Assembly: GCA_050124795.1 (NCBI GenBank) | Contig: JASFEO010000006.1 | Coordinates: 1-52,876 of the forward strand | Reading direction: 5' to 3' | DNA from: Candidatus Pacearchaeota archaeon | GTDB lineage: Archaea > Nanobdellota > Nanobdellia > Pacearchaeales > GW2011-AR1 | DNA length: 52,876 bases | Shown here: piece after piece, positions 20,125-50,785 of the stretch | Numbering within the stretch: the stretch's first letter is position 1 | How the letters are laid out: each line of letters begins with the position of its first letter | Notes under the pieces: generated by a model | Seen by the model: the letters and a program-made list of their open reading frames with translations, nothing else | Told to the model about the DNA's origin: nothing | Database searches by the model: none | Position numbers and translations under genes: made by a program

Positions 20125-20544
20125 TTATTTTTTCGCCGCAATATTTTTTTCTTTTGATTCAATCACATCCAATTCTTTTTTTACGTTATCCAAAATCAAA
20201 ACAACCTGATTAAATGATTGTTCATCTAAATCAGACTTAAACAATTTAATTTTAAATTTAACAGAACTTAATTTTAAACTTAATTCGATCAGGTCTTTTC
20301 CTTTTTTCCTCTCCACACTTATTCGTGTATGCAAATCAGAATACTTTTCATTTAGATAACTAATAACAATATTTTCAAGAAAGACCATAAGTTCTTTTTT
20401 GCCCCCATATGCCCTTTTCACTTTTTCGTCAGGAATAAGATTATATTTTTTTAACAAAATCAAAACTTTTCCAAAATCTTCATTAACAAATTTTAAAACA
20501 TCTTCAAAATTATTTATAACGATCTCTTTTTCTTCGTCACTCAT
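20125..20544 (-). CDS. Small helical protein, related to 9169..9504
   Basis: ATGA-coupled to the second ATPase gene. Confidence 0.7.
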   Translation of the reverse strand: MSDEEKEIVINNFEDVLKFVNEDFGKVLILLKKYNLIPDEKVKRAYGGKKELMVFLENIVISYLNEKYSDLHTRISVERKKGKDLIELSLKLSSVKFKIKLFKSDLDEQSFNQVVLILDNVKKELDVIESKEKNIAAKK

Positions 20545-29803: not shown

Positions 29804-31291
29804 TTAAAAAAAGAAAAATAAAACCTTGGGCACATAAAGGATTTTATCTTTTTGGACAACCCCCTTAGAACTATCCAAAATTATCCCATACTTTGACTCA
29901 ACTCGCTCCATACTTTTTTTTACTTGGGACATCCCCTTTGAACCCCAACAACATTCTATCGGAACGGCACCACTATTTAATTTAATTATAAAATCTGCTC
30001 CCTTTTGATTTGCATCATCAAAACCTAAATCTTTTATTGGCGAAGTGGGTTTTTTTAAATTTAATAAAAGGGTATTAAATACACTTTCTTCAAAAAAAGT
30101 GCCTAATTGTGAACTATCTAAAATATTCAACCTTCCCATATTCCATAGTAAAACACTTCTTATATTAGGATGTTTAAAGTAATATTTTGGAGGTCTGGCA
30201 ACACGCTTTAAAGGATTATTGCTATAATATTTTTCTTCTTCAATTAAACAAGCCATTTTCAATGATTCTAAAATATTAAAAACAGTTCCTTCAGGCATTC
30301 CATCAAGCTCCCCCGAAATAGACTTTACACTATTTGTTGCAGGAGGCAAACTATTTGCCAGATATTGTAACATTGCGAAAACTTTGCTTGAAGACCTTTG
30401 CCCGATTTTGGAATAAACAGGTATGTCCTGTGTTATAACTTTATCAAAAATATTCATCCACCAATTAAAAATATTATTTGTATCATATTCTTCTAAAGAA
30501 ACTGGCGAAGCTCCAGAAATTAGATAATCTTCTAACAACTTGTTTAAATTAATATTCTCCAGTGAAGATTTTTTCATCAACTCATTATAAACAGTATCTA
30601 AAGTATATTGTGCGCTTTCTATATCACTATCTAAGGCAATCCTTATTCTCTCTGCAGTTTTTTTTGGGGGCAAAAATCTATATTTTAAATAAAGATATTC
30701 TTGAAAATTTAAAGGGCTAACTTCATCCCTTATCATTCTTCTACTTGCATCAACACTACTTTTGAGACCTAATGCAGAAGAGCCACTAACAAAAATTAAA
30801 ACATTGTTTTCCCCATCACTCCTATTGAATAAACTTGTTGAAAAATCCAGCCAACTTGGGTCATTATGGGCTTCATCTAAAAACAAAATAATTGATTCAT
30901 TTGTTTTTTCTAAAGGTTTGGCTAAAAAAAATTGTTCATATAATTCAAAAAGTTCTTGAAGAGAAGCATTGTAAATCCGATTCAAATCCCCAACATCAAC
31001 ATAAATCAATCTTTCTACAGGGATTTTAAAATTATCCCTCAAATACCGATAAGTTTGAAACAACAATGTAGTTTTGCCTACACCCCTCAACCCTGGAAAA
31101 ACTACAATTCTCTGCTTAAGAGATTTATCAATAAATTTTCTTACATACATCTCAGGCTTCAAAATAAAACTTCTTCTTGGAAGAAGGTTGCTAGTTTTAG
31201 GGTTTGTTATCTTCTTATTACACCGTTCACTTCCAGTGGAAATAAGATGATTCAAATAACTTCTCAACTTGTTTTTCTTATCAAATTCCAT
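29804..31291 (-). CDS. AAA_14/DUF4143 (COG1373-type) ATPase
   Basis: GLRGVGKTT, LFLDEAH, SGSS, PLNFQEY, KYYF, ADF...PIEC. Start moved to ATG 31291. Confidence 0.85.
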   Translation of the reverse strand: MEFDKKNKLRSYLNHLISTGSERCNKKITNPKTSNLLPRRSFILKPEMYVRKFIDKSLKQRIVVFPGLRGVGKTTLLFQTYRYLRDNFKIPVERLIYVDVGDLNRIYNASLQELFELYEQFFLAKPLEKTNESIILFLDEAHNDPSWLDFSTSLFNRSDGENNVLIFVSGSSALGLKSSVDASRRMIRDEVSPLNFQEYLYLKYRFLPPKKTAERIRIALDSDIESAQYTLDTVYNELMKKSSLENINLNKLLEDYLISGASPVSLEEYDTNNIFNWWMNIFDKVITQDIPVYSKIGQRSSSKVFAMLQYLANSLPPATNSVKSISGELDGMPEGTVFNILESLKMACLIEEEKYYSNNPLKRVARPPKYYFKHPNIRSVLLWNMGRLNILDSSQLGTFFEESVFNTLLLNLKKPTSPIKDLGFDDANQKGADFIIKLNSGAVPIECCWGSKGMSQVKKSMERVESKYGIILDSSKGVVQKDKILYVPKVLFFFF

Positions 31292-33922: not shown

Positions 33923-36900
33923 CTAGAACCACTTTTCAATACTTTCCTGTTTTTCAAGTTCTTTGCCAAAAATAGAATCAATATATCTTTTTGTTAATTC
34001 CAAATTTTGTTTCATATAATTTGACAAATTATATTTCTCTGCCAGATTAATTGCAATTTCCAAATATTTTTTTATTCCCCCTTCATGAATTGTAAAAATA
34101 ATTTTTCCCCCGCACTTTGGACAAATTCCCTTTAAAGGAGGCCGCCTCATAATTTCATTGCAAGCCACACACCTAAAACCCTGCATTGAAAACTTTCTTA
34201 AATTACCCTTCATATCTCGCAAAAAATGCCTCTCAATCATAAGCCTCGCAGTATCACTTGCATCAACTGCCCGAATTTTCTCAACCAAAGCCATCTGGTG
34301 CTCAACCTTTTCCTGCATTGTCCCCAAAGATTTATACGCTGAGCAAATAACCCCGTTATTAAAATCAGTTGTGTCATGAGTATAACCTAAATTAACAAAA
34401 GGATTCTTTCCACACCTCATGATATCTTTGCACGTCGTGATATTCTTAACTTCTGAGGAGTGCGCACCTTTTTCAGCTAATTCATATAATTCAATTGTAT
34501 AAGTTTTATTTTCAATAAATTCAAAATCCAAAATCTGGTCATCAACTTCTCCTGCATCAATCTTTGCATTTAAAACTAAAGGCGCATCTTGTGTTCCGCC
34601 TCGGTGGCTTGGCAAAAACTTTCTGGAAAAATTTAATAAAACATCTCCTAAAAGCATAACTGCTAATTCATCTCCATCACAATCACGCCTGATAGCTGCA
34701 TGCATATAAGGACTTGCATAAAGACCCAAAGAATTTGAAAAACCAATAAACCTGCAAATAACACCTGCGCAATTATGCGGCGCCATGCAAACACCAAGCT
34801 TTCCAACCAAGTCATCCTTGGTTTTAAGATTATAAAAAGAATCCAATCCATAAAAACGAGTGAGTTCATCATCAACAAAATTCGAAACATTTGTAAATAC
34901 ATCATCTGCTCTTTCATCCAAAGTCTCAGGAGAACTTGGCAAAAGAACATCATGCGGCATTAATTCCAAAATCTGCTCTTCATTAGTTAATTCCCTTCCT
35001 TCAATATCTTCAGTATATCCAAGTTCTTTTAATTTAAGAACTCCAACCCCAATTTCTTTTGGCTTAAAAGAAACCAAAGGCAATTCAGTTGCATCAAAGC
35101 GAATTGTCCCATCCTTGTTTACCTGCAAATTATGTTTTGCCCTTAAAATCCCCTTAGCCAAATTCTCCATTGTGTGTCCTTCTGAAGAAGTTCCCCTAAC
35201 ACCTTTAATTAAAAGCGGCAGCATTTCATTAGTAAAATTAATTTTTTCCTTAGCCTTTTTAAAATAATGATTTATATCAATTGACTGAAAACAAGAATCC
35301 ATTCCCTCTCTCTCACTTGACTCATTTCTCTTTTCAAATGATTTTTCTTTTGTATCTGTAAAATAAAATTTCTTTCTTGTTTTTGCCTCACAAATTTCAC
35401 AAACTGGATAAATAGTTTCCTTGTCGCACTTCTCACAATAATAAAGTGGAAACTGACTTTTAACACAACCAACTTCCATTGCAGCCTGAACACTCCTTAA
35501 TCTTCCTCCCTGAGAAGAAACAGGAAATAAAACATTCGGACTTCCTGTTAATTTTCTTAATTTTGCTTTTTCAGGACGACCCATTCTCGTTCCAATAAAA
35601 TCTCCGGACTTATCTTTAATTTCAAAGAAAGACAAACTATCAACAATTTCTAAAACATCCTCACTCTCAATTAACTTCATTTTTTCAACTTCTTCTTTTA
35701 ATAAAAATTCTTCTTTTTCTAAAATCCATAAATCAATTCCCAAATTAACAAATAATGCTTTTGAATTTTTTTCATTTATCACAACATTCTCAATTGTAAC
35801 TTCATGCTCCATTCCAATTAATTCAAGTGCTCTTTTTCCAAGGCTGAATTTTTCTTCCTCAGTTTTATTAAACGGCAAAATAATTTTTCCTCCTCGAACA
35901 ATTGAATTTCCTAACCAATTAATTAAGCCTAAAAATTTTTCATGATTTATTTCCTTCCAATAAAAAATAAATTCAGGATAAAAAGGGATTTTATATTTTT
36001 CACTAAATAAAATTGCGTCATCAATTAATACATTAAAAAAATCCTCAATTTTTTCTCCTGCTTTTTCTAAATCTAATTTCCACCATTCTTCAACATACCC
36101 TGATTTTAGCAAACCAGCATTTCTATTTATAACGTCGCTAAAAGGAAATAAAATATCTCCCAAATAAATTATTTCTTCAACATCTTTGTAAAGTTCCTTT
36201 GCTTCATCTTTTGTTTTTAATTTTCTTACACTTCCATTTTTGAGTTTTACAATCGGCCCGTCGATAAAGTCACACACAGTTGTAACACACCCCTTAGTTG
36301 GCTTTTCAATTTTTAACTGTGTTCCAATAGCAATAAAAGAATCAGTAATTGCCATTGTCGCAGGATGCAAACTAACTGCACTAAAGCCATTTACTCTTCC
36401 TCGCCCATATCTAAATCTAAAACCTCCGGACCTCGAGGGATGACCATAAACAGGTCTGCCTGCAACCAAATCCTTAATATAAGTTGGAACAGCATCTCCT
36501 ATTTTTTTTCCTTTGGCACTTGTTAGTTTTTCATGAAGTTCTAAATATTCACTTAAAAAATCAAAACCAGTTGCATTAATTCCATTTTTCTTAGCACCAT
36601 TAAGAAGTCGAAAACCTTTTGCAGCTTTTTGAGCCAGGCCTTCAGAAAAAATTAAACACATCCCCCCCCGAATATTATTTGTCTCAACTCTATCCAAATT
36701 CTTATAATTTGATACTTCAAGTTTTTCTGTTGGTTCTCCTGCAATTTGAATTGGAAGGTGTTTTGCTAAAAATTCCATCTCCTCTTCCAAAGGAAAATAT
36801 TGCAAATTCGTAACCCTCTCATGATAATCAGTATTCTCAGTAACATATCTTTTCACTTCTTCATCATTTGGGTCATATTTTGCATATCCAAATAATTCCC

Positions 36901-37405
36901 GTAAATAATCAATTAACATTAGAACAATACAAGAAGCAGTTGTTCCTGCTGAACGAATTGGTCCTGAAAAATAAGCCTTAAAATATTCTTTGCCGTCGCG
37001 GGTTTTTTCAATTTTTAATTCTGTATATCCTTCAATTGGACTTGCAACAACTGCAATAGTCTGATATGCAAAACCAACCCTTATCCCTGCATCAATTGCC
37101 TCATGCAAACTTGCAAACTTGCAAAACTTTTGCTTTGCCACTTCTTCTGCAATTTTAAAAGTAACAGTCGTATCAAGCTTTCCATACTTTTTTTCAAGTT
37201 CAATAATTCTTTTATCAACCCCTGAATCCAAAAGCTGAGGATAAAGAACAGAAATTAAACCAACAACTTTTTCAGCCATACTCATTGCAAGAGGAATCTC
37301 AACTTTTTCCGAAGGATCATATCCTAAAGCTCTGGCTTCATTCATAACCTTGTAAACTTTTTTTACATCTTTTTCTAAATCCTTAAAATATTTTTGAGTT
37401 TCCAT
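33923..37405 (-). CDS. polC: DNA polymerase D large subunit DP2
   Basis: FSGPIRSAGT, GGFRFRYGR, GTRMGRPEKAK, RRDCDGDE and C-terminal Zn motifs; no intein evident. Confidence 0.98.
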   Translation of the reverse strand: METQKYFKDLEKDVKKVYKVMNEARALGYDPSEKVEIPLAMSMAEKVVGLISVLYPQLLDSGVDKRIIELEKKYGKLDTTVTFKIAEEVAKQKFCKFASLHEAIDAGIRVGFAYQTIAVVASPIEGYTELKIEKTRDGKEYFKAYFSGPIRSAGTTASCIVLMLIDYLRELFGYAKYDPNDEEVKRYVTENTDYHERVTNLQYFPLEEEMEFLAKHLPIQIAGEPTEKLEVSNYKNLDRVETNNIRGGMCLIFSEGLAQKAAKGFRLLNGAKKNGINATGFDFLSEYLELHEKLTSAKGKKIGDAVPTYIKDLVAGRPVYGHPSRSGGFRFRYGRGRVNGFSAVSLHPATMAITDSFIAIGTQLKIEKPTKGCVTTVCDFIDGPIVKLKNGSVRKLKTKDEAKELYKDVEEIIYLGDILFPFSDVINRNAGLLKSGYVEEWWKLDLEKAGEKIEDFFNVLIDDAILFSEKYKIPFYPEFIFYWKEINHEKFLGLINWLGNSIVRGGKIILPFNKTEEEKFSLGKRALELIGMEHEVTIENVVINEKNSKALFVNLGIDLWILEKEEFLLKEEVEKMKLIESEDVLEIVDSLSFFEIKDKSGDFIGTRMGRPEKAKLRKLTGSPNVLFPVSSQGGRLRSVQAAMEVGCVKSQFPLYYCEKCDKETIYPVCEICEAKTRKKFYFTDTKEKSFEKRNESSEREGMDSCFQSIDINHYFKKAKEKINFTNEMLPLLIKGVRGTSSEGHTMENLAKGILRAKHNLQVNKDGTIRFDATELPLVSFKPKEIGVGVLKLKELGYTEDIEGRELTNEEQILELMPHDVLLPSSPETLDERADDVFTNVSNFVDDELTRFYGLDSFYNLKTKDDLVGKLGVCMAPHNCAGVICRFIGFSNSLGLYASPYMHAAIRRDCDGDELAVMLLGDVLLNFSRKFLPSHRGGTQDAPLVLNAKIDAGEVDDQILDFEFIENKTYTIELYELAEKGAHSSEVKNITTCKDIMRCGKNPFVNLGYTHDTTDFNNGVICSAYKSLGTMQEKVEHQMALVEKIRAVDASDTARLMIERHFLRDMKGNLRKFSMQGFRCVACNEIMRRPPLKGICPKCGGKIIFTIHEGGIKKYLEIAINLAEKYNLSNYMKQNLELTKRYIDSIFGKELEKQESIEKWF

Positions 37406-39061: not shown

Positions 39062-40684
39062 TCATACTTCAATCTTTTCCTCTTCTTCAAAATCTAAAAT
39101 CTTAATAGATCTGGTTTTCAAATTTACCATTGGAACCTTACAGTGATCAGGCGTGTTTCCAAACTTTTCCTGATAAGGAGTCATTGCTTCCCAGCATGAA
39201 GTTGAAACTAATAAAATATTATTATAATATGTCACTGCACTTTTATGGGTATGAGCAGAAACTAAAATATCCGGAATATTAGAAATTAAATGATAATCAG
39301 TATCAACAGAGGGAAAATATTGAACAGATGCATGAGTCGGTGCCAGATGCCTTTGCCTAAGTAGATACTTCATAATTTCTTCAGGAGAATTTGCTGCCTT
39401 CATTTTCATGAGCCTTGCAACATTATTCACATAATAAAAATAAGAAAACCCATGATAAATTAAAACATTAAAACCATTAAAATTTTTATTAAGTCCAATT
39501 TTTACTTCACTTGGATTTGGAACCAAAATTACATTGTCAAGTTCATAAAGCGGCCATGCATATTTTTCATCAAAAATAGGCTGCGGCTCCATTAACCTAA
39601 CACCCTCATGATTTCCAGGAGAAATAATTATTTTTATATCAGATCTTATTTTTCTAAAAAGTTCTGCAACCTGCAAATATTGTTCTTCCAAATCCATTAC
39701 TTTTAAATCATTTTCCTGATTAGGATAATTTCCAACCCCGGTAATAATGTCTCCTGCAACAATTAAATATTTTATTTTCTCAACTTCTTCTTTTGTTCCT
39801 GCAACTTTGCCATTTAAATAATCAATAAATTTCAAAAAACTTTTTTCCAAAAACCTCTTGCTTCCATAATGCAAATCTCCAATAAACAAAGCATATTCCT
39901 CTTTTGGCGACTTTTTTCTCGTCAATAAAATTGCCTCTGGAAAAATAACCTCATTTGCAAAAAGAATTTCACGATTTCCAGAACCCTTAAAACCAACAAT
40001 ACTATCAAGTGCAATTTCCTCTGCCTTTTCATAAATTTCTTTTTTATCTTTATTAATTAAAACCCGAATTGTTCCTGTCAAATCCTCAATATCTAAAATT
40101 ATATTTTTATTTTTAGTAACTCTTTTCTCACTAACTAAACCAATTACTGAAACCCTGCTTCTATCATTTAAAATTTTATTTATTGAAACTAAATTATCTA
40201 ATTCACTATGCTCCTGCAAAATTTCTCTCATTTTATTAAACCTGTTTCTAAAATATTTTACAAAATCAATAACTTCAAGTTTTTTTCCAGGCGTCGGATT
40301 TTGAAAACTAACTTCCACATTCTCATTTATTTTTTCTGTTTTAATTTTTTCAGAATTTTTAACAAAAGAATTTTTTGAATTATCAAAATTATCAATAATT
40401 TCAGACTCATGAGAAATTTCAATACTAAGACCCAAATTAATTTTCAGTTTTTCTAATTTTTTTTGATTCTCCCTCGGCAAATCCATAAAAAACTTATTCA
40501 CTATCGCGCGATTTTTCTGAAAAACATTTTTTGTAATAATTTTCTGATTAGTATGACTTCTTATTTTTTCCAAAATAATTTTCACAGCCTCTGCGTCATT
40601 AGTCTCACTAAATAAATTCAATACTTCACTATCTAATAAAAATCCTTTTTCAAAACAAAATTTCAAAATTTCCTGAGTATTCAT
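39062..40684 (-). CDS. polB: DNA polymerase D small (exonuclease) subunit DP1
   Basis: YFRNRF, OB fold, GDLHYGS, PGNHE, YHG, RHLAPTH, AHTH. Confidence 0.95.
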   Translation of the reverse strand: MNTQEILKFCFEKGFLLDSEVLNLFSETNDAEAVKIILEKIRSHTNQKIITKNVFQKNRAIVNKFFMDLPRENQKKLEKLKINLGLSIEISHESEIIDNFDNSKNSFVKNSEKIKTEKINENVEVSFQNPTPGKKLEVIDFVKYFRNRFNKMREILQEHSELDNLVSINKILNDRSRVSVIGLVSEKRVTKNKNIILDIEDLTGTIRVLINKDKKEIYEKAEEIALDSIVGFKGSGNREILFANEVIFPEAILLTRKKSPKEEYALFIGDLHYGSKRFLEKSFLKFIDYLNGKVAGTKEEVEKIKYLIVAGDIITGVGNYPNQENDLKVMDLEEQYLQVAELFRKIRSDIKIIISPGNHEGVRLMEPQPIFDEKYAWPLYELDNVILVPNPSEVKIGLNKNFNGFNVLIYHGFSYFYYVNNVARLMKMKAANSPEEIMKYLLRQRHLAPTHASVQYFPSVDTDYHLISNIPDILVSAHTHKSAVTYYNNILLVSTSCWEAMTPYQEKFGNTPDHCKVPMVNLKTRSIKILDFEEEEKIEV

Positions 40685-41262
40685 TTTAATTTATCAATTA
40701 TTTCATTCCAATTTTTAACTCTTGTAATATTTTCATGTTCGCAATTTTGATTCCAAGGTTTATCTAGTAAAAAAACTTTAATTCCTTTTTCTGCGCAATT
40801 ATAAGAAAAAAATTTATTATCTTCTATAAGAACATCTACACCAATTTCACTGCAAATTTCATCTTTCGTTTTTCTTCCTGAATAAATATCTCCTGAAAAA
40901 TAAACTTCATAAGGTTTATTTAAAAAATATTTTTTTAAAAATTCTTTAGTTATTTCTTCATTTGAAACCCTTCTGGAAGTAATAAAAAAAATTTTATGTA
41001 AAAAAAATAATTTATTCAAAATTTCTTCAACACCTTCAATTAATTTCATTTTTTTAAAATAATTTGTTTTATGAAATTCTCCCAAAATTTCAATAACATC
41101 TTCACAAGTATGACCAAAAGGTTCTCTTAAATAAATATCTTCAATATCCTCAACATTAAACTCTTTTCCAAATCTGAATTTATAAAAATCCAAATAACTA
41201 TTAATAAAATCAGCTACAGTATCATCAATATCAATTCCAATTTTTAATTTTTCTTTTTTCAT
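40681..41262 (-). CDS. HAD-family 5'(3')-deoxyribonucleotidase-like protein
   Basis: IGIDIDDTV, ITSR, IEDN, KPWN and RVKNW motifs. Confidence 0.85.
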   Translation of the reverse strand: MKKEKLKIGIDIDDTVADFINSYLDFYKFRFGKEFNVEDIEDIYLREPFGHTCEDVIEILGEFHKTNYFKKMKLIEGVEEILNKLFFLHKIFFITSRRVSNEEITKEFLKKYFLNKPYEVYFSGDIYSGRKTKDEICSEIGVDVLIEDNKFFSYNCAEKGIKVFLLDKPWNQNCEHENITRVKNWNEIIDKLK

Positions 41263-41297
41263 TTTAAAAATTTAATCTTTCAATTACTAAATCTAAT

Positions 41298-42530
41298 TTA
41301 ATAATTAACCACTTCACTAATAATTTCCTTTGCCTTGTCAATAATATTTTTTGTTATTGCAAGTTTTATTTCTCTCATTCTTCCACCCCTGCCTTTTGAA
41401 ATAACCCTCACATTAATAATTCCCAGCATATCAAACTCCTGGATAATATCACTAACCCTTCTCTGAGTCAAAACCTCAACATGATTTTTCATGCAAACAT
41501 CCTGATAAAAATTATAAACATCTCCAGTAAAAATAGGTTCATTCCCTTGTTTTTCAGACAAAGTTATAATCGAAGACAAAACAAACTGAAACTGTTTAGG
41601 TTCACTTCTGATAACATCCAAAATCTTATCTTTTTCCATTTTCTCATTTGCTAAATCAATATGACGAAGTAAAATTTTTTTTGAAGAATCCCTTTCAGCA
41701 AGTTCCCCTGAAATCCTCAATAAATCAAGAGCCCGCCTTGCATCACCATGTTCCCTTGCAGCATATGCAGCGCATTTTGCAATAACACCCTCCTCAACAA
41801 CATTCTCTTCAAAAGCATCACAAGACCTTTTATTTAAAATTTCCTGCAGCTGCAAAGCATTATAAGGTGAAAAAACAACCTCTTCCTCAGAAAGTGAACT
41901 TCTTACTCTTGGATCAACCCCATCCAAAAAAGTCAAATCATTACTTATCCCAACAACACAAATCTGGGTTTTTGCTAATTCTGAATTAAGACGAGTTAAA
42001 TTATATAAAAAATCACTTGAAATTTTCTTAACAGTCTGGTCAATTTCATCTAAAACCAAAACCAAAAGCTGCTTTTCGGAATCAATTAATTCAATAAACT
42101 TGCTGTAAACCGCCTCAGTGGGCAGGCCAGTCGCAGGAATATTCCCATTAAGTTTTTTTATAAGTTCAGCCAAAATCCTGTATTCAGTATCAGAAATTTT
42201 TTTTAACTTGCAATTTAAATAAATAATTTTTAATTTATGAGGAGAATCCTCACCAACCCTCTTTAAAAGTTCATCTTTAACATAATTAATTGAAAGAGTT
42301 TTTCCAGTCCCGGTCTTTCCATATAAAAATAAATTGCTTGTTCTCTCACCCCTTAAAACCGGCGCTAAAATAGATGCAATCTGCTTTATCTGCTCCCCAC
42401 GATGAAGAATATTATCCAAATCATTTGGCTGATAATTTGCCTGCAAAACTTCTTTTTTCCTAAACAAACTTTTACTATTACTAACAGAATCAAAAATTTC
42501 ATTTAAACTTTCTATTTGTGTTTTTGTCAT
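41298..42530 (-). CDS. cdc6: Cdc6/Orc1 replication initiator
   Basis: GKTGTGKT, LVLDEID, DPRVRSSL, HGDARRALDLL and a C-terminal wH (SKGRGGR). Confidence 0.97.
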   Translation of the reverse strand: MTKTQIESLNEIFDSVSNSKSLFRKKEVLQANYQPNDLDNILHRGEQIKQIASILAPVLRGERTSNLFLYGKTGTGKTLSINYVKDELLKRVGEDSPHKLKIIYLNCKLKKISDTEYRILAELIKKLNGNIPATGLPTEAVYSKFIELIDSEKQLLVLVLDEIDQTVKKISSDFLYNLTRLNSELAKTQICVVGISNDLTFLDGVDPRVRSSLSEEEVVFSPYNALQLQEILNKRSCDAFEENVVEEGVIAKCAAYAAREHGDARRALDLLRISGELAERDSSKKILLRHIDLANEKMEKDKILDVIRSEPKQFQFVLSSIITLSEKQGNEPIFTGDVYNFYQDVCMKNHVEVLTQRRVSDIIQEFDMLGIINVRVISKGRGGRMREIKLAITKNIIDKAKEIISEVVNY

Positions 42531-42560
42531 TTCCCTTTTTTAAAATAAATAAATTATTCT

Positions 42561-42918
42561 ACCCCTCCCAGCATGATTTCTTATGGAAAATAAAGTTTAT
42601 TTTTATTTTTCGTTGAGAAAAATATAATTTATTATATAAATGATTATAACTACTAAAAAAGAAAAACACCTATATTTCTTGTGGAAAAATGAAAATTCTA
42701 ATTAAAATATTTAAAAACATAAAAAAGAATGAAAAAAATCTTATTTTTTATAATAATATAAATAAAATAAACTTCTAATAAAGTATTTTTATATTTATTT
42801 AATATAAAATAATTAATCTATATACTATATAATATAAATTTTTTTAAATAAATAATAAATAATAAAAACTTAAATTTTTATTTTTAAATGTTTCCATAAG
42901 AAATTAAAGGGTCAGGGT
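42561..42918. other. Putative replication origin (oriC) with three ORB-like boxes around an AT-rich unwinding element
   Basis: TTTCCAYAAGAAAT on the minus strand at 42576..42589 and 42674..42687, and on the plus strand at 42891..42904 followed by TAAAGGG. Adjacent to cdc6; gene orientation flips here. Confidence 0.8.
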
Positions 42919-42964
42919 GTTAAAAAATCCAAAGTTTTATAAAATATTCATTATTAAAAATTCT

Positions 42965-43162
42965 ATGAAAACATCTCTTGAAGATTTAAATCTAGATGAA
43001 CCTGTTGTTGAAAGTTCTCCCATTAATTCTATTAATTATCTAAACCAATATTCTAAATATCTTTCAAATTCTTTAGAAGATTCTAAAAAGAAAATAAAAA
43101 AGAATAATAAAAAATATGGTGGAGAAGAAATTCCTTTAGAAGGAATTAAACCTCTTTTTTAA
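42965..43162 (+). CDS. Hypothetical protein
   Basis: In-frame ATG at 42965 after a TATA-like TTTATAAA. Confidence 0.45.
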   Translation: MKTSLEDLNLDEPVVESSPINSINYLNQYSKYLSNSLEDSKKKIKKNNKKYGGEEIPLEGIKPLF

Positions 43163-43240
43163 TCATTTTTTATTTATATTCTTTAATGTATATTTAATTT
43201 CATAGAAAAGTTTATAAGTTATTTTCTTGTTGTTTTTAGC

Positions 43241-43501
43241 ATGCAGGAAAATAAGAATACATTTAATGATATCTTTGGAAAAATGATTGTAACAAAAGAA
43301 GGAAAAAGACTTGGGTTTGTCAAGGACCTGACTTTTGAGACAAAATCAGGAGAACTAATAAATATTGTTGTAAAAGATTCAACACTTTATACTAAAAATC
43401 TTAATTTAGAAAAAACAAATTCAAATAACCATTTAATACCCCATAGCGCAATTATTGCAATTGGAGATTTTGTAATTGTTTCTGAAGAAGATTTAATATA
43501 A
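43241..43501 (+). CDS. PRC-barrel protein (CdpB-like, possibly cell division)
   Basis: IFGKMIVTKEGKRLGFVKDLTFETKSGEL...IPHSAIIAIGDFVIV. Confidence 0.85.
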   Translation: MQENKNTFNDIFGKMIVTKEGKRLGFVKDLTFETKSGELINIVVKDSTLYTKNLNLEKTNSNNHLIPHSAIIAIGDFVIVSEEDLI

Positions 43502-43595
43502 AATTTATTTATTAAGAAGATAATATTATTTTTATAAAATTAAATATAACTTTTTTTATAGAAATACTTAAAAACAAAGATTTTATTAAATCAAT

Positions 43596-44024
43596 ATGAA
43601 ATTTATTGGATTTAATTTTACAAAAGTTAATGCAGAAAGATTTTCAGATGATTTAAATGGTTTGAATTTGAATAATAAAATGGATATTTCAAAAATTGAA
43701 TCTATGGACTCAAAAGACAATAATAAGAGGGTGATAAAATTAAGTTTTAAATATGAAATTGATTATAATCCTAATTTTGCTAAAATAAACCTCTCAGGAG
43801 AAGTTTTTGTTTTAGTTGATTCTGAATTAGCTGAAAAAATAACCAAGCAATGGAAAGAAGATAAAAAGTCTTTAGATGAAGATTTTAGAGTGTTTGCTTT
43901 TAATATTCTTCTTAGAAAATGCAATTTAAAGGCGCTTGAACTTGAAGATGAAATGAATCTGCCAATTCATTTGCCTCTTCCTTCTGTAAAAAGAGGAGAT
44001 TCACTTGAAGAAAAAAAAGAATAA
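43596..44024 (+). CDS. Conserved archaeal hypothetical protein, possibly SecB-like fold
   Basis: GFNFTKVNAER...MNLPIHLPLP pattern. Confidence 0.6.
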   Translation: MKFIGFNFTKVNAERFSDDLNGLNLNNKMDISKIESMDSKDNNKRVIKLSFKYEIDYNPNFAKINLSGEVFVLVDSELAEKITKQWKEDKKSLDEDFRVFAFNILLRKCNLKALELEDEMNLPIHLPLPSVKRGDSLEEKKE

Positions 44025-44107
44025 TTCTTTAATAAATCTCTTTTCACTATATTATAAAATCAAAAATTTTTACTAAAATTTTTAAATAAATTAATCTTAA
44101 TTATTTT

Positions 44108-44404
44108 ATGAAAATTTCTAATGAGAAAAAAGAAAAAATCTCTGAGCAGATTCTTTTTTTTCTTTATTCTGTTTCACCCAAGTCAATTTTTACTTCACAC
44201 ATTGCAAGGGAAATTGCAAGAGATGAGGAATTTATAAAAAAAATTCTTCTTAATTTAAAGAAAAAAAATCTTGTAATTGAAATTAAAAAGAATTCAAAAG
44301 GAACAAATTATTTAAAAAGGTCAAGATGGAAATTAACAGACTCTGCATATCAAATTTATAAAAAATATCAGGAAAAAAGAAATTATAACACTCAATTATC
44401 TTAA
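44108..44404 (+). CDS. Small winged-HTH protein
   Basis: ILFFLYSVSPKSIFTSHIAREIARDEEFIKKILLNLKKKNLV followed by a wing. Confidence 0.7.
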   Translation: MKISNEKKEKISEQILFFLYSVSPKSIFTSHIAREIARDEEFIKKILLNLKKKNLVIEIKKNSKGTNYLKRSRWKLTDSAYQIYKKYQEKRNYNTQLS

Positions 44405-44435
44405 TCTTTTTATAGTCTATTATTTTTAAGATTTA

Positions 44436-45116
44436 ATGGATCAGGTTAAAGAGGCTTTTAGCAAAGTAAAATTAGATATAGATTATTTAAAAAAAGAAAT
44501 TAATACAATAAATTCAAATTTTAGTAATATGAAAAAAGAAATTTTAGAATTAAAAGAAATATTTAAATTAAATTTTAATCAAAAATCTGTCGAAGAGGTT
44601 TCGACAGAAATACAGGATTCTTCAGCAGTTTCGACACATCCTTCGACATATAATCGTCATTTTAAGCCCTTAAAACACCAAATTTCACCTATTTCCATAG
44701 GAAATCAAGGGGTTCCAACAGACAAACAGACAAACAGACAAACAGACAAACAGACAAAATTCGAAGAGAAAAAAGAAAAAAATTCTATTGAAAGTGCTTA
44801 TGAATTATTAAACTCTCTTGATAGCTTAAAAAAAGAAATTCGTCTTAAATTCAAGCGTTTAACTGAACAAGAATTTTTAGTGTTCTCAACACTTTATCAA
44901 TTAGAAGAGGAATTTGGATCTTCTGATTACAGGGCAATTTCAAAAAAATTAAACTTAACTGAGAGTTCAATAAGAGACTATATTGCAAGATTAATAAAAA
45001 AAGGAATTCCCATCGAGAAAAACAAAATAAATAACAAAAACATTCAATTAAATATTTCCTTGAATCTAAAAAAAGTAGTAACTCTTCCGACGATATTTAA
45101 ACTTAGAGAATTATAA
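44436..45116 (+). CDS. Coiled-coil + linker + winged-HTH protein A
   Basis: LTEQEFLVFSTL...YRAISKKLNLTESSIRDYIARLIKKGIPI. Confidence 0.8.
   Translation: MDQVKEAFSKVKLDIDYLKKEINTINSNFSNMKKEILELKEIFKLNFNQKSVEEVSTEIQDSSAVSTHPSTYNRHFKPLKHQISPISIGNQGVPTDKQTNRQTDKQTKFEEKKEKNSIESAYELLNSLDSLKKEIRLKFKRLTEQEFLVFSTLYQLEEEFGSSDYRAISKKLNLTESSIRDYIARLIKKGIPIEKNKINNKNIQLNISLNLKKVVTLPTIFKLREL
44691..44712 (+). promoter_or_regulatory. Intragenic ORB-like box ATTTCCATAGGAAATCAAGGGG
   Basis: Near match to the oriC box TTTCCATAAGAAATTAAAGGG (42891..42911), with dyad and G-string. Confidence 0.65.
44717..44756 (+). repeat. Perfect tandem octamer (AACAGACA)x5
   Basis: Read directly; begins 4 bp after the ORB-like G-string. 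Confidence 0.95.
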
Positions 45117-45343
45117 TTTTAATATTTTCAAGTAAAAATTTAACTTATCCTCTTTACCGAATAACTATCTATTTGTATTAAATAATCAATTATCTTGTTT
45201 CTCTCCTTTTTTATTAATTCTCTTTCTTTGTCTTTTGCTTTTTCTCCTTTATTTTATCTTTTATTCTTCTTTTTCATCAAAATGGTCTATTTTCCTCACT
45301 TTTTACTAAAATTTTTTAATTTTTAATGATTTTCTTCTCACTT

Positions 45344-45976
45344 TTAGGCATTTTCAACATCTTTCTCTTTTTTCTTTTCTTTATCCTGCTTTTTAACTCT
45401 CACTTTTCGTTTTTTAATCATCTTTTCTTTATGGTTTTCATGAATATATACCCTTTTTTTACCATTATTCTCAATATCTTCTTGTATAAAACCCTCACTT
45501 TTTTGTTTTATGGCATTTATTTGCCCTCTAATTGTTGATTTTTCTTTTCCAAGCATTGCTGCTAAATCATCATAACTTAACTTCATATCACTGTTTAGAA
45601 GAATCCAAATAATTGCTTTTTCAGTTATTGAAAATTGGTCTAAATTTGGTGTTTGGACAACTGTTTGGACAGGTGTTTGAACGGCATAAACAGGTGTTTG
45701 TTTTTTGGACAGCCTTTCAGTTGTTTTAAACATTTGTTTATTTCCAAAATTATTTACTTCCATTACAATTTCTTTAAGTTCTTCTAAATCTTTTTTCATC
45801 GTCGATAAATTTTCTTTTAACCTATCAATATCTGATTTATGCAAATTTTTTTCACTATCTAAGTGTTTAATCCATTCACTAAAAGAGACAAAATCTTTTT
45901 TTACAGATTCAAAACCTTTCTTTGTTTCTTCTTTTATTTTCTCAGCCTCTTTTTTCCCAAAAAACCAACCAAACAT
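45344..45976 (-). CDS. Amphipathic N-terminus + coiled-coil + winged-HTH protein B
   Basis: MFGWFFGKK; FSITEKAIIWILL...LSYDDLAAMLGKEKSTIRGQINAIKQK. Confidence 0.8.
   Translation of the reverse strand: MFGWFFGKKEAEKIKEETKKGFESVKKDFVSFSEWIKHLDSEKNLHKSDIDRLKENLSTMKKDLEELKEIVMEVNNFGNKQMFKTTERLSKKQTPVYAVQTPVQTVVQTPNLDQFSITEKAIIWILLNSDMKLSYDDLAAMLGKEKSTIRGQINAIKQKSEGFIQEDIENNGKKRVYIHENHKEKMIKKRKVRVKKQDKEKKKEKDVENA
45648..45711. repeat. Intragenic array of TGTTTGGACA-type repeats (12-bp period)
   Basis: Exact copies at 45650 and 45662, variants at 45674 and near 45690-45711; encodes QTPVQTVVQTP. Confidence 0.85.
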
Positions 45977-46070
45977 AAAAATTATTATGAAAAGAGGTTT
46001 AAATACTTTTTGCTTTTATATTCGATAAAATAATTAAAATTATCCTTAATTTTGCTTGTTTTTTCAATAG

Positions 46071-46241
46071 AAAAAATTAACAAACAAACACCTGTCCAAA
46101 CAGCGTTTTATAAAAAATTAACAAACAAACACTTGTCCAAACACCCTTAAACACCCTAAAATAAATCAAACAGGTGTTTAAAATTAGTTTTTTCTCAAAT
46201 TTCGTCGTCGATAAAGCGATTTAAACACTTGTCCAAACACC
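46071..46241. repeat. Intergenic array of AAACACYTGTCCAAACA repeats, inverted relative to the intragenic array
   Basis: 32-bp direct repeat 46071..46102 / 46112..46143 (1 mismatch); third copy at 46223..46241. Confidence 0.9.
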
Positions 46242-46393
46242 AAAAATTCTAATAAAATCTTTCTATTCCAACTATTTTAATTTAAAATTAACTAAATTAA
46301 CCTAAGTGCACAAATCTGGCAGGAATAAAAATATTAAGAAAAAATTATCCCTCTCAAAAAGTTAATAAACTTCTTTTTTTTCTTTTTATTAAA

Positions 46394-46675
46394 ATGAGGA
46401 AAAAAATAAAGCAATTCTTTACACCCGGGACAAGGTTCAAAAGAGAATTCAGGCGACAGGCAAGAATGTTCACAACATTTGCACTTGGTTTTACAATTGC
46501 ATTTACCTGGAGGCAAACAATTTTTGATTTATCCCAATCTTTTCTGCAATATCTTTTTCATCTTGAACATGCTTCAGCTCTAAGCATTTTTGCATCAGTT
46601 TTCATCACATTAATCAGTGTTGGGATAATCTATTTAACATCTTATTATCTAAAAGACAGTCATGAAAACTATTAA
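46394..46675 (+). CDS. DUF5654-like small membrane protein
   Basis: TTFALGFTIAFTWRQTI plus a second TM. Confidence 0.65.
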   Translation: MRKKIKQFFTPGTRFKREFRRQARMFTTFALGFTIAFTWRQTIFDLSQSFLQYLFHLEHASALSIFASVFITLISVGIIYLTSYYLKDSHENY

Positions 46676-46750
46676 TCATTAATAATAACTAAGTTAACCT
46701 AAGTGAATATGCTCGCAAGTTTTTTAAATTAGTTTTTTATCTATGTCTTT

Positions 46751-47098
46751 ATGGGATTAATCGGCGCAATGACAGGGAACGCATTAGGGAGTTCTTTAGA
46801 AAAATTAAACAAAAAAATAGAAGAGTCCTATCTTTTATTGAGGCAACAAGATCCAAACAATTCTTTATTAGATTTATTAGATATTCAAGCTGAAAACCCT
46901 TTTAAGTATAAATTAACTGAAGTGATTTACAAGAAATATCCTGAATCAGAAAAAGAAAAACAATCACATTCAAGATTTTTATTTAGAGATTTAAATTTGT
47001 TGGAAAAATACCTCTCTAATCTTAATTCAGAACTAAGACAACCAAAGTGCACAAATCCCTTAAGTAAGTTTACTTTTTCTGATGAAAAAGAAGCCTAA
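46751..47098 (+). CDS. Hypothetical protein
   Basis: 115-aa ORF with a TATA-like element upstream. Confidence 0.55.
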   Translation: MGLIGAMTGNALGSSLEKLNKKIEESYLLLRQQDPNNSLLDLLDIQAENPFKYKLTEVIYKKYPESEKEKQSHSRFLFRDLNLLEKYLSNLNSELRQPKCTNPLSKFTFSDEKEA

Positions 47099-47230
47099 GT
47101 CAGTTTTACACATAAAAGCTTCATAAACTTAAATTATCAAGACTTTAATGGCAAGATTTATATACTTAGGGTGCCTGAAAGACACGTGAACCAAGTAATT
47201 TATACCCTAAGTTCACAAATAAAAGAGAAT

Positions 47231-47866
47231 ATGACAAACAAAAGAAAAGGAGGCTGGCAATTCTGGGTTGAAGATTTTGGAAACTATGTAATAAAAACCC
47301 CAAAAAACAAAAAAGAAATTTCAGATTCTGTCATAAACTGGCTAAGGTATATCAACAAACTTGAAGAACATGATAAAAGAGTGAATAATATGGTTTGTGA
47401 TTTAAAAAACTCAACAAGATTAATAAAAAAATCCAAAATCCCTCTGTCTATTTTGGCTGATTTAGAATTTTTAGATAATGGAAAAATCAAACAAAAAAAA
47501 GTAATTGTTTTAGAAGAAGAATTCCAAAAATTAATCAAACAAAAAAATTTGAAACAAGCAAAAAAATTAATTGATCAGACCATAAAGTTGTTAATTGAAT
47601 TATGGAAATATGGCCTGCATGAAAAGACTTACAAGTTTTATTCAAATATTGGAATATTAAATAATAATCTTTTTTTAATTGACCCTTTTGAATTGACTGG
47701 AGATAAAAAGAAAATTGAAAAGCAAATCAAAAAAAAGAAGTGGCGCAATCAAGTAAAATATAGTAAGAATTCTTTAAAGGAGCTCTCTCTTTATTTTGAA
47801 AAAAAGATGAATGAAGAGATGACTTTTAAAAGATTAAACAAACTTTGGAAACAAAACCTAAAATGA
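47231..47866 (+). CDS. Hypothetical protein, possibly a degenerate kinase-like fold
   Basis: GGWQF..YVIKTP; GLHE..F.SNIGI...FLIDPFE. Start moved to the in-frame ATG 47231. Confidence 0.5.
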   Translation: MTNKRKGGWQFWVEDFGNYVIKTPKNKKEISDSVINWLRYINKLEEHDKRVNNMVCDLKNSTRLIKKSKIPLSILADLEFLDNGKIKQKKVIVLEEEFQKLIKQKNLKQAKKLIDQTIKLLIELWKYGLHEKTYKFYSNIGILNNNLFLIDPFELTGDKKKIEKQIKKKKWRNQVKYSKNSLKELSLYFEKKMNEEMTFKRLNKLWKQNLK

Positions 47867-48636
47867 CCTCTCAAAACCCCTTAGCAGCAATTTACATCCG
47901 TGTTTCAACAGAAGACCAAGCAAAATTCGGAATCTCTTTGCATGCACAAGAAGAAGCCCTGAAAAATTATGCAAAAGCTCAAGGATATGAAATTTTCAAA
48001 ATCTATAAAGATGAAGGAAAATCTGCAAAAGACATTAAACACAGGCCGGAGATGACCCAATTATTAAAAGATGCAGAAGTAAGAAAGTTTCAGGCGATTT
48101 TTATTTACAAGCTTGACAGATTTTCCAGATCCTTAATGGATTTAATCACAACAATCGAGCAATTAAAAAACTGGGGAATTGACTTTGTTTCTTTGCAGGA
48201 TAAAATCGAAACAACTTCTGCAACCGGAAAATTAATGTTTCATATTGTCTCGGCATTTGCGGAATTTGAAAGAAATGTTACAAGTGAAAGAACAACGTTC
48301 ACAATGCATTCAAAATTCAAAAGCGGAAACCTCGTCACAAGAGCCCCTTTAGGATACAAGGTAGAAAATAAACAACTAGTTCCTGTAGAAAATTCCTACA
48401 TTGTCCAGGAAATATTTCAAACTTTTCTAAATAATGACATTAGTTTAACCCGCCTTTCAAAAAAATATAATCTATCAGTAAATGGCTTAAAAAAAGTTTT
48501 ATCAAATAAGACTTATTTAGGTAAGGTAAAGTTTGCAGGACAAATTGTCCAGGGAAAACATAATCCTTTAATATCAGAAGATCTTTTTAAAAAAGTTCAG
48601 GATAAATTAGATAAAATATCTTTTACAAAAAACTAA
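47863..48636 (+). CDS. Serine recombinase (resolvase catalytic domain plus recombinase DNA-binding domain; no zinc ribbon)
   Basis: YIRVSTEDQ, YKLDRFSRS, AFAEFERN, APLGY, TYLG and HNPLISEDLF. ATG 47863 overlaps the upstream stop. Confidence 0.92.
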   Translation: MTSQNPLAAIYIRVSTEDQAKFGISLHAQEEALKNYAKAQGYEIFKIYKDEGKSAKDIKHRPEMTQLLKDAEVRKFQAIFIYKLDRFSRSLMDLITTIEQLKNWGIDFVSLQDKIETTSATGKLMFHIVSAFAEFERNVTSERTTFTMHSKFKSGNLVTRAPLGYKVENKQLVPVENSYIVQEIFQTFLNNDISLTRLSKKYNLSVNGLKKVLSNKTYLGKVKFAGQIVQGKHNPLISEDLFKKVQDKLDKISFTKN

Positions 48637-49845: not shown

Positions 49846-50252
49846 ACATCTTTTCAAAAAAAACTGCTTATGAACTTGAAAAAAATTCAATAAACCTAAT
49901 GACTTCTCGTTTTGATCAGTTGTTATATGGACTTGACACTAAAAAAGGAAAATTCACTTCCCTTGCGCAAAAAAATAAAATCATAAATTCAATAAAGGAT
50001 TATATTAAATATCGCGAAGAAGAAAAAATAATAAATCAAGATTCTGAAATTTGGAAAATATTCATGAAAATAAAAAAACTAAATTTCAATTCAGTTTCAG
50101 AAATTAAAAAAATTTATTCAGAACTTCTTGAATTAAAATTTAAATTTCATTATACTAAAAAATCAATTTATTATAAACAAAAAGGAAGAGAGATTAAAAT
50201 GGAAAAAGGTCAAAAAGGTTTTAAAGATTTCTTGGGAGGTTTGTTTAAATGA
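49842..50252 (+). CDS. Hypothetical protein
   Basis: 136-aa ORF with ATGA overlaps at both ends. Confidence 0.65.
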   Translation: MNIFSKKTAYELEKNSINLMTSRFDQLLYGLDTKKGKFTSLAQKNKIINSIKDYIKYREEEKIINQDSEIWKIFMKIKKLNFNSVSEIKKIYSELLELKFKFHYTKKSIYYKQKGREIKMEKGQKGFKDFLGGLFK

Positions 50253-50785
50253 ACTCCTCAACATGCGCAAAATGCGGCTTTGTCTCAATTAATAATTTTT
50301 CAAGATTTGGTCTTCCTCTTTGTTCAATTTGCATTCGCTTTGCACCAAGAACACCTGAAAAATTAGATGAATATGTTGAAGAAAAAATAAATTCTGAAAC
50401 TCTTGAAACATTTAGAAAATTCTCAGAAATCGGCAGACCTCAATTAAACTCAATGACAAAAAAAGCAGAATCAGGTTCACCAATGTCAAGACCTGCATTT
50501 GGCTACAAGTTTGAAGACAAGAATTTAGTTCCTGCAATAAATTCAAAAGAAGTTGAAGAAATCTTTGAAGAATTTTTAAACAACAAAATCTCCTTAACAC
50601 AATTAGCAAAAAAACACAACTTCTCAGTAAACGGCTTAAAAAAAATTCTGACAAACTTTACTTACATTGGAAAAATAAAATTCAATAACAAAATCCACAA
50701 AGGAAACCATGAGCCAATAATTTCAACAACACTTTTTAATCATGTTCAAAATAAATTAGAAAAATTAGGAATTAAGAAAAAATAA
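50249..50785 (+). CDS. Zn-finger + recombinase DNA-binding-domain protein lacking a catalytic domain
   Basis: CAKC...CSIC, then RPAFGY...SVNGLKKIL.N.TYIG...HEPIIS, closely matching the C-terminus of 47863..48636. Confidence 0.8.
   Translation: MNSSTCAKCGFVSINNFSRFGLPLCSICIRFAPRTPEKLDEYVEEKINSETLETFRKFSEIGRPQLNSMTKKAESGSPMSRPAFGYKFEDKNLVPAINSKEVEEIFEEFLNNKISLTQLAKKHNFSVNGLKKILTNFTYIGKIKFNNKIHKGNHEPIISTTLFNHVQNKLEKLGIKKK

Follow-up and report, generated by a model that had tools for sequence, protein, structure and literature searches.

In a 52,876-nucleotide (nt) stretch of the genome of a Candidatus Pacearchaeota archaeon (assembly GCA_050124795.1, contig JASFEO010000006.1; hereafter the window, 53 kb of the genome), the block at 43.2–46.3 kb is the right-hand origin flank of a Pacearchaeota/Woesearchaeota-type DPANN archaeon, with genes interleaved with DNA signals. 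Reading rightwards from the origin, the block encodes a PRC-barrel protein, a 142-aa SecB-like protein, a 98-aa winged helix-turn-helix (wHTH) protein, protein A and, convergent with it, protein B. What appears in A as a QT-rich linker is, judged from its sequence, translated cis-acting DNA, an origin recognition box (ORB) followed by (ACAG)n, which is conserved at the nucleotide level and is no protein motif. The linker of B is, at the level of sequence, a helically phased array of AAACAG-CTGTTT palindromes that is repeated upstream of the gene. With moderate confidence, we read the block as an origin-flank nucleoprotein module, in which Orc1/Cdc6 would occupy the outlying ORB and A and B would occupy iteron-like arrays.

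A canonical chromosomal origin, recognized by its predicted elements, adjoins the Orc1/Cdc6 initiator gene (41298..42530, − strand; NCBIfam NF001625, E = 1.9e-141; Pfam Cdc6_C and Cdc6_lid), which has to its left the genes for the small (39062–40684) and large (33923–37405, PolD DP2 domains) subunits of DNA polymerase D (PolD). The full ORB pattern, a dyad plus a G-string, has exactly three matches in the window, where shuffles lead one to expect 0.03: at 42567–42588 (−), 42892–42911 (+) and 44693–44712 (+). The first two adjoin orc1/cdc6, are inverted relative to each other, with the G-string of the left ORB towards cdc6, and enclose an AT-rich duplex-unwinding element (DUE; 42720..42880) with 4–7% GC in 80-nt windows; a mini-ORB lies near the left ORB (42675–42686, −). 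This order of ORB, DUE and inverted ORB is that of Sulfolobus oriC1 (PMC12141716), and the dyad core, TTCCA-NN-GGAAA, is shared with the ORB oligonucleotides of P. furiosus to which Cdc6 binds (PMC1904270), in both cases according to the sections of these papers drawn on here. The GC skew passes from strongly negative to about zero near 42–43 kb, consistent with an origin, and lends it weak support because gene orientation switches at the same point. An 81-aa open reading frame (ORF) directly past the right ORB (42917–43162) has a relative in 0 of the 80 loci introduced below; on that ground we took it as no gene, and the DNA there probably belongs to the intergenic region of the origin. A perfect ORB dyad (TTCCAGTGGAAA) lacking a G-string, at 31231–31242 within an AAA_14 ATPase gene, is probably a chance occurrence.

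For comparison across species we used the best 80 of 380 relatives retrieved with a profile of A from one-genome-per-species contigs. By their record titles these loci come nearly all from metagenome-assembled genomes of Pacearchaeota, Woesearchaeota or Nanoarchaeota, with a handful of other or unspecific labels. Multi-locus DNA scans covered 81 sequences and 1.2 Mb in total, and the presence of genes in the 80 loci was scored by tblastn with the window proteins. Across loci, the cdc6-proximal intergenic region has a median lowest 100-nt GC content of 0.04.

The third full ORB of the window lies inside the coding sequence of gene A (44436..45116, +), 2.2 kb from cdc6 and with no AT-rich element of its own. 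Its dyad at 44693–44704 and its GGGG at 44709–44712 together make up the ORB pattern, and with a TTCCAACA extension the element spans 44693..44720 (+) and is translated as I-S-I-G-N-Q-G-V-P-T. Upstream of it, in the region 44588..44648, lie TTCGACA boxes on the − strand at 44588 and on the + strand at 44600, 44630 and 44642, which account for 4 of the 9 matches in the window and are read as invariant 'ST' dipeptides. At 44717..44758 (+) stands a perfect tandem repeat of an 8-nt unit, (AACAGACA) x 5.2, translated as TDKQTNRQTDKQT, the place of which is taken by (ACAG)n in most relatives. When 24 A proteins are aligned, an invariant I-S-x-G-N-x-G-V-P/S-T-D-R/K-Q-T separates a variable coil from the wHTH domain, and the DNA beneath it is near-identical between species: two to three TTCGACA boxes, the dyad, a short spacer, GGGG, a TTCGACA-type extension and then (ACAG)n.

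Several measurements locate this conservation in the DNA. Rare codons are fixed throughout the segment, with TCC at 100% against a background of 7%, GGG at 99% against 21%, GAC at 100% against 22% and CAG at 99% against 29%, whereas the codon usage of A's coil and wHTH is background-like. The ORB/(ACAG)n block has a pairwise third-position identity of 0.88; the corresponding values for the coil and the wHTH are 0.50 and 0.46. The same DNA is also strongly concentrated: the full ORB pattern is found 75 times in A on the + strand (75 of 81 sequences) and 31 times in the cdc6–PRC intergenic region, and is rare elsewhere; the composite of ORB and TTCGACA extension is found 70 times in A, 7 times upstream of B, once in a B ORF as called and nowhere else; TTCGACAC has 106 matches in A versus 3 in 874 kb of unassigned DNA; and a 14-nt version of the tandem repeat occurs 318 times in A and 0 times elsewhere in the 1.2 Mb. 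In 9 of the 80 loci a strong inverted ORB stands in non-coding DNA upstream of B as a partner to the one in A, a position at which the window has only a decayed dyad (46062–46073). At the protein level, residues 49–115 of A, which hold the invariant linker, are modelled by AlphaFold2 (AF2) with a predicted local distance difference test (pLDDT) score below 50. An RNA explanation for the frozen segment found no support in an Rfam search of 41000–47500, which gave no match, in the fold of the segment (z = −1.17) or in a tRNA search, which gave none. All 80 A orthologues are in frame, at 207–273 aa, and no out-of-frame tract lengths occur among the relatives.

In gene B (45344..45976, −), the linker K-Q-T-x-V-Y-A-V-Q-T-x-V-Q-T-x-V-Q-T-P is coded by 12-nt repeats with AAACAG-CTGTT(T/C) palindromes, the 12-nt period being evident at 45650–45679 and the array of boxes (CAAACA-SS-TGT, translated KQTPVYAVQTPVQTVVQTP) spanning 45645..45702 on the − strand. 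The variable residue of the linker is almost always A, G or P (codons GCT, GGT and CCT) and the palindrome centre is always S-S, which points to a DNA rule and not a protein rule. A second array of boxes and half-sites lies upstream of the gene, at 46062..46245, with boxes at 46085, 46126, 46167 and 46223 and with the decayed ORB dyad at its edge; a TATA-like element of B lies at about 45999–46006. Allowing at most one mismatch, the window holds 11 B boxes versus 1.84 expected, 8 of them in 45657–46180. Counts of strict boxes across the loci are 219 for the B coding sequences and 60 for the 500 nt directly upstream of them, with 9 in the remainder of the 1.2 Mb. The median number of half-sites ([GC]TGTTT) is 8 for the 350-nt stretch preceding B and 9 for its coding sequence, versus a mean of 0.59 and a 99th percentile of 3 in 1710 control windows. 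Half-sites on the same strand are most often spaced 10 nt apart, and smaller peaks of spacing are seen at 13, 12, 19–20, 23 and 30 nt. In the cdc6-proximal intergenic region a search for half-sites (GGTGTTTA) gave 0 matches, though some were expected.

The coding and upstream copies also resemble each other within a locus. Box centres agree within a locus at 0.565, versus 0.430 +/- 0.037 between loci, a value that 0 of 2000 permutations reach. Third-position identity in B is 0.81 in the array block versus 0.56–0.60 in the domains. Two distant relatives of B (P0245 and P0236) have a linker repeat peptide of the FMNVQ/FMNVR type instead of VQTxVQT, which suggests lineage-specific DNA repeats at the same position, and we suspect that the linkers of distant B relatives encode other palindromes. 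One B orthologue (locus L036, 5920–6537, −) has one or more in-frame stop codons within the F..VK.D motif, which might reflect a pseudogene, an error of assembly or recoding.

The block keeps its place beside the initiator gene. By tblastn, matches were found for A in 80, B in 77, the 98-aa wHTH protein in 77, the 142-aa protein in 75, the PRC barrel in 72, and Cdc6 and the PolD small subunit in 53 each of the 80 loci. Many loci end at contig edges; of the 53 whose sequence reaches more than 3.8 kb beyond A on its upstream side, 51 have Cdc6 in place. Order and orientation are those of the window with few exceptions (the PRC-barrel gene inverted in L017, the 142-aa protein gene inverted in L060, and L078 and L070 rearranged), and the genes outside the block differ between loci, with a HAD hydrolase in 14 and an HD-domain protein in 6. 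A preliminary description of the window had proposed an origin-linked cluster of five ORFs ending in a convergent A/B pair, in a window with no ParA-type ATPase. All five ORFs were recovered; the linkage to the origin and to cdc6 is borne out by the three full ORBs and by the 51 of 53 loci, these belonging to a single clade; and Pfam scans of 43 window ORFs (10 at E ≤ 0.1, and 33 of at least 90 aa at E ≤ 1e-5) found no ParA-type ATPase.

The same description had taken A and B for paralogues built from a coiled coil with an F..VK.D motif, a shared QT-rich linker encoded by DNA repeats, and a C-terminal wHTH. Profile comparison now shows that they are paralogues with a predicted coiled coil and a MarR-like wHTH. 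Pairwise BLASTP of A versus B finds little similarity (8e-4 over 24 residues), and with narrow profiles only 28 helix-turn-helix (HTH) columns align, but hhalign with a profile of diverse B proteins aligns A 3–221 with B 26–207 over 179 collinear columns (probability 98.4%, E = 5.1e-15). The motifs quoted for the two coils, EAFSKVKLDI and KGFESVKKDF, are both present in the translations. As for the linkers, DNA repeats do underlie both, with the 8-nt tandem at 44717–44758 in A and the 12-nt period in B; as a feature shared by the proteins the linker did not stand, given the frozen synonymous sites and the same DNA in non-coding places.

The AF2 model of A has a long N-terminal helix (residues 3–49), an unstructured middle (49–115), and a helix and MarR-like wHTH (117–225), of which residues 144–225 are modelled at pLDDT ~90. 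Foldseek placed A among MarR/ArsR-type regulators (E ~3e-4 to MarR-family structures), Pfam gave HTH_36 at 8.5e-6 for residues 141–191, and PDB sequences gave generic HTH matches only (E ~1e-3). Protein B begins with an aromatic-basic peptide (MFGWFFGKK), followed by the F..VK.D motif and coiled coil, the linker, the wHTH and a basic tail. Its own match to HTH_11, at 0.003, is below the cut-off, and neither A nor B attains the threshold of any curated family; HTH_11 recurs in 18 of 39 diverse B relatives; its neighbours in the Atlas are MarR-like, and PDB sequences gave nothing below E 0.01. The N-terminal motif is found in 71 of 72 B orthologues and 37 of the 39 diverse relatives, compared with 1 of 81 A proteins; a classical amphipathic helix was considered for it and is not supported by its hydrophobic moment. 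Scores for the Lrs14 and Sta1 families are below the NCBIfam cut-offs (A versus Lrs14, 16.7 bits, cut-off 90; B versus Sta1, 21.9 bits, E = 1.4e-4, cut-off 80). No ParB-family Pfam domain was found in A, in B or in the 39 B relatives. At E ≤ 1e-3, A has 1865 relatives and B has 362 representative clusters among 1.84 billion representatives, and as far as the records tell both families appear confined to Nanobdellota/Woesearchaeota. A complex prediction with A(1–60) and B(1–85) gave a score of 0.04 (mark 0.32), evidence in neither direction.

The block encodes three further proteins. The 86-aa PRC-barrel protein (43241..43501, +) belongs to a CdpB-type family (PF05239, E = 4.5e-9, 36.6 bits versus a cut-off of 21.2), resembles solved archaeal PRC-barrel proteins in the PDB (8qzo, 3.7e-8; 8onw, ~1e-3), and has matches of 67–87% identity in the loci; a role in division would follow from family membership only. 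The 142-aa protein (43596..44024, +) matched no sequence in Pfam, SecB included, or in the PDB, and its AF2 model (pLDDT 89.8) has a four-stranded sheet and two helices. We are confident that this predicted structure represents a SecB-like fold: the best Foldseek match in the PDB is the SecB-like chaperone Rv1957 (5mtw; E 6.6e-4, TM-score 0.53), SecB itself (1qyn and 1fx3) also matched, and the Atlas structure reaches a TM-score of 0.64 to the SecB cluster, with uncharacterised relatives in several archaeal phyla. SecB prefers aromatic-basic peptides. The 98-aa winged-helix protein (44108..44404, +) has a mean column identity of 67% in its alignment, weak HTH matches only, and nothing below E 0.04 among PDB sequences.

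Further conserved DNA elements accompany the arrays. A T-box (TTATCGACGA type) lies in B at 45799..45808 (−), with further copies upstream of B at 46205–46215 and 46022–46028, one of which adjoins B's TATA/BRE-like (TFIIB recognition element) promoter element; across loci there are 34 matches in B, 32 upstream of B, 20 in A and 6 elsewhere, and the Ser codon TCG within it is used in 92% of sequences versus a background of 3%. Just 3′ of A's stop codon stands a conserved ACCGAATAACT element (45156..45166, +); ACCGAATAA follows the stop of A in 43 A–B spacers, and AAAAGTGAG repeats, which lie in the A–B spacer and the 3′ end of B, number 60 in the spacer and 99 in B, all on the − strand. An X-box (ACCTAAGTGCAC; 46300..46311, +), between B and a gene for a small membrane protein (46394–46675), has 90 matches in the 81 sequences in a single orientation and matched neither a tRNA nor an Rfam RNA. 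A AAACTTTTCTG motif just upstream of the PRC-barrel gene (43200–43217 in the window), present in one orientation in 34 of 54 cdc6–PRC intergenic regions, is probably a promoter or regulator site.

Beyond the block, a serine recombinase gene with Resolvase and Recombinase domains lies at 47845–48636, 1.9 kb from B, and has tblastn relatives within a few kilobases downstream of B in 50 of the 80 loci; an enzyme conserved beside the origin in this way could serve in dimer resolution or in inversion. A second copy in the window (50249–50785) has the Recombinase domain only, behind a Cys-rich N-terminus. The left half of the window contains many large ORFs with no family match and two large HerA/DUF87-type ATPase proteins (9570–13142 and 20541–22934), which have no bearing on the origin flank.

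In the module that we favour, Orc1/Cdc6 would occupy the ORB in gene A and, in some species, also the inverted ORB upstream of B, while B, and possibly also A or the 98-aa wHTH protein, would dimerise through the coiled coil and coat the iteron-like arrays. These proteins would jointly form a nucleoprotein complex on the origin flank, making the expression of A and B depend on the occupancy of their own genes as a feedback, with B's aromatic-basic N-terminal peptide as a putative handle for a partner or the membrane. The complex may aid initiation, position the origin or regulate these genes alone.

Several observations weigh against this reading. The unwinding element is found only in the cdc6-proximal intergenic region; we looked for a second one in the A–B spacer and upstream of B and found none, the lowest 100-nt GC content being about 0.21 in both, so that the ORB in A is by itself no part of an initiation site. 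B-type sites are restricted to one cluster of ~0.6 kb, which would also fit simple autoregulation, and a strict box is present upstream of B in only 36 of 74 loci, compared with 67 of 74 for a relaxed palindrome. The hydrophobic moment of B's N-terminal peptide is 0.18, versus 0.33 for other 11-mers. The 80 loci represent a single, fairly close clade, with Cdc6 67–79% identical, so that common descent accounts for part of the conservation in gene order as well as in sequence. Finally, our assignment of individual proteins to individual elements is a guess.

We think it rather unlikely that A and B are ordinary autoregulated transcription factors, with the arrays as their operators and the proximity to the origin an inherited gene order devoid of functional meaning. 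Such an account would draw on the MarR-like wHTH domains of both proteins, on the presence of B boxes only in and just upstream of B, on the T-box that adjoins B's promoter element and on the single clade from which all loci come. However, the best-conserved element in A is an ORB of the Orc1/Cdc6 type and no regulator site, and the block stays beside cdc6 in 51 of 53 loci while its neighbours change. The 8–9 phased half-sites both upstream of and inside B are far above what is usual for an operator, and the size and phasing of the array argue against a plain one. Further down the scale of probability stands the proposal that the QT-rich motifs were retained by protein-level selection together with repeat slippage, or that (ACAG)n is a phase-variation switch. 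The tetra- and octanucleotide tracts are slippage-prone, their copy number varies between loci, and Q-T periodicity is seen in both A and B. Yet the rare codons are fixed at synonymous sites well beyond the repeat, including the ORB dyad, the same DNA stands in non-coding places, the segment is predicted to be disordered, and all A orthologues are in frame; nor is the RNA fold of the segment unusual, and Rfam gave no match. We regard this proposal as highly improbable.

That sites are confined to a single cluster and that no second unwinding element was found argue against both a scattered tether of the Noc/RacA type and a second origin. The first of these readings, which corresponds to the origin tethering, segregation or replication–division coupling inferred in the preliminary description, would have B, with A, fasten origin-proximal DNA to the membrane or division site together with the PRC-barrel protein, in place of a ParA system. 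It is unlikely in our estimation, although B combines a coiled coil with a DNA-binding domain and a phased array of sites, its conserved N-terminal peptide is confined to the B family, a PRC-barrel gene lies in the same block, and the 43 ORFs scanned include no ParA-type ATPase. According to the part of Adams et al. (PMC4331003) drawn on here, the weak N-terminal membrane helix of Noc also needs nucleoprotein arrays to work. Set against this, the score of B's peptide does not indicate an amphipathic helix, its sites are grouped in one cluster, and no ParB, MerR or DivIVA-type feature was found in A, B and the relatives scanned; the window, moreover, is 53 kb of the genome, and a ParA gene may lie elsewhere. 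The second reading, in which the A–B segment is a relic or an ancillary replicon-type origin with iterons, wHTH 'Rep-like' proteins and ORBs, captured from a mobile element, we consider very unlikely. The segment has no AT-rich unwinding element in the A–B spacer or upstream of B, its position is constant across species, mobile-element borders were not seen and its composition matches the rest of the locus. These points stand against the iteron-like repeats with 10-nt phasing, the ORBs that converge on the segment in 9 loci, the serine recombinase gene near B in 50 of 80 loci, and the precedent of Sulfolobus, in which each origin is defined by a separate initiator, including the winged-helix WhiP (PMC12141716, in the part drawn on here).

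Returning to the nucleoprotein module, a more far-reaching form of it can be drawn, which we hold to be unlikely as a whole. In ParA-poor, genome-reduced archaea, cis-elements would be dual-coded in genes for accessory proteins of the origin itself: Orc1/Cdc6 on A's ORB would gate synthesis of A's DNA-binding half, B would polymerise on the phased array in and beside its own gene, B's N-terminal peptide would couple the newly replicated flank to the envelope or to the division machinery by way of the PRC barrel, and the SecB-like protein would handle the disordered linkers or the peptide. If true, this would be a self-contained device that links replication to segregation or division.

The archaeal origins known so far come from a few cultured species, and, to our knowledge, almost nothing is known of DPANN origins beyond the presence of orc1/cdc6. 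The locus offers a concrete, conserved origin architecture for Pacearchaeota/Woesearchaeota-type genomes, in which coding sequence carries both an outlying ORB and a phased array of iteron-like sites. It is also a natural case of a 'conserved protein motif' being a DNA signal, and thus a warning for annotation and motif-based inference. Proteins A and B, the 98-aa wHTH protein and the SecB-like protein are candidate origin accessory factors that are testable as recombinant proteins without cultivation, and, if B anchors or positions the origin flank, the locus would bear on origin placement in ParA-less archaea. In the literature searched we found no description of an ORB inside a wHTH gene or of origin-flank arrays in DPANN. 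Another lead, the haloarchaeal 'oap' origin-associated genes, was dropped after the term proved absent from PMC1868953. In the sections of a Nanobdellota preprint drawn on here (10.64898/2026.05.13.725050), orc1/cdc6 is used only to rotate genomes.

Among bacterial systems, Noc, RacA and ParB/parS may serve as functional analogies only; their defining domains are absent here. RacA is a coiled-coil DNA binder with an N-terminal MerR-type domain and about 25 dispersed, origin-proximal ram sites; Bacillus parS inside spo0J is a centromere-type site within the gene of its own binding protein; and the sites of both Noc and RacA are scattered around the chromosome. The block recalls these systems in having a putative coiled-coil DNA binder with origin-proximal sites, and in having sites inside the gene of their own candidate binder. 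In contrast to RacA, the wHTH here is C-terminal and MarR-like, and the sites lie in one cluster. Noc, a ParB-family protein of Bacillus subtilis, depends for its function on assembly on specific DNA sites (Adams et al. 2015, PMC4331003) and resembles B, a putative DNA-binding protein, in the conserved peptide at its very N-terminus; as far as the part of that paper drawn on allows comparison, B differs in that no ParB or CTPase domain was found in it, its sites are not scattered, and its peptide does not score as amphipathic by hydrophobic moment. The PRC-barrel protein is, like the haloarchaeal division protein CdpB, a single-domain barrel of ~80–90 aa (Zhao et al. 10.1101/2023.03.28.534520). 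The words Orc1, Cdc6 and replication are absent from the text of that preprint, and in the part drawn on here the neighbourhoods comprise translation and RNA-processing genes, Cdc48, EngB, the cdv cluster and one sepF-ftsZ operon.

The archaeal comparisons lie closer to the DNA signals. Sulfolobus oriC1, as set out in the sections of Dhanaraju et al. 2025 (PMC12141716) drawn on here, consists of ORB2-DUE-ORB3 with an accessory ucm/UBP pair, the ucm motif lying inside the DUE and UBP being an abundant nucleoid protein with hundreds of sites genome-wide. The origin described here is alike in its inverted ORBs around AT-rich DNA and in an extra conserved origin motif, which in Sulfolobus is read by a non-initiator DNA-binding protein and here would be read by a putative one; unlike ucm, the extra motifs here are arrays at a distance of 2–3.5 kb from the DUE, limited to the A and B genes. 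For an ORB within coding sequence, the closest known case is that of the Thermococcales, in which an ORB3/mini-ORB cluster inside the dp1 (PolD small subunit) gene beside oriC is conserved between species and bound by Cdc6 in vivo in Pyrococcus (Matsunaga et al. 2007, PMC1904270). A cluster of that kind was considered here and rejected, the PolD small-subunit genes of these loci containing only 2 full ORB matches in 82.6 kb. On the sections of that paper drawn on here, the two cases agree in the placing of ORBs in coding sequence beside oriC, in their conservation between species and in the same dyad core, and they differ in that the ORB of the Pacearchaeota/Woesearchaeota-type genomes lies across the origin from cdc6, in the gene of a putative DNA-binding protein, where it forms the interdomain linker and is followed by (ACAG)n.

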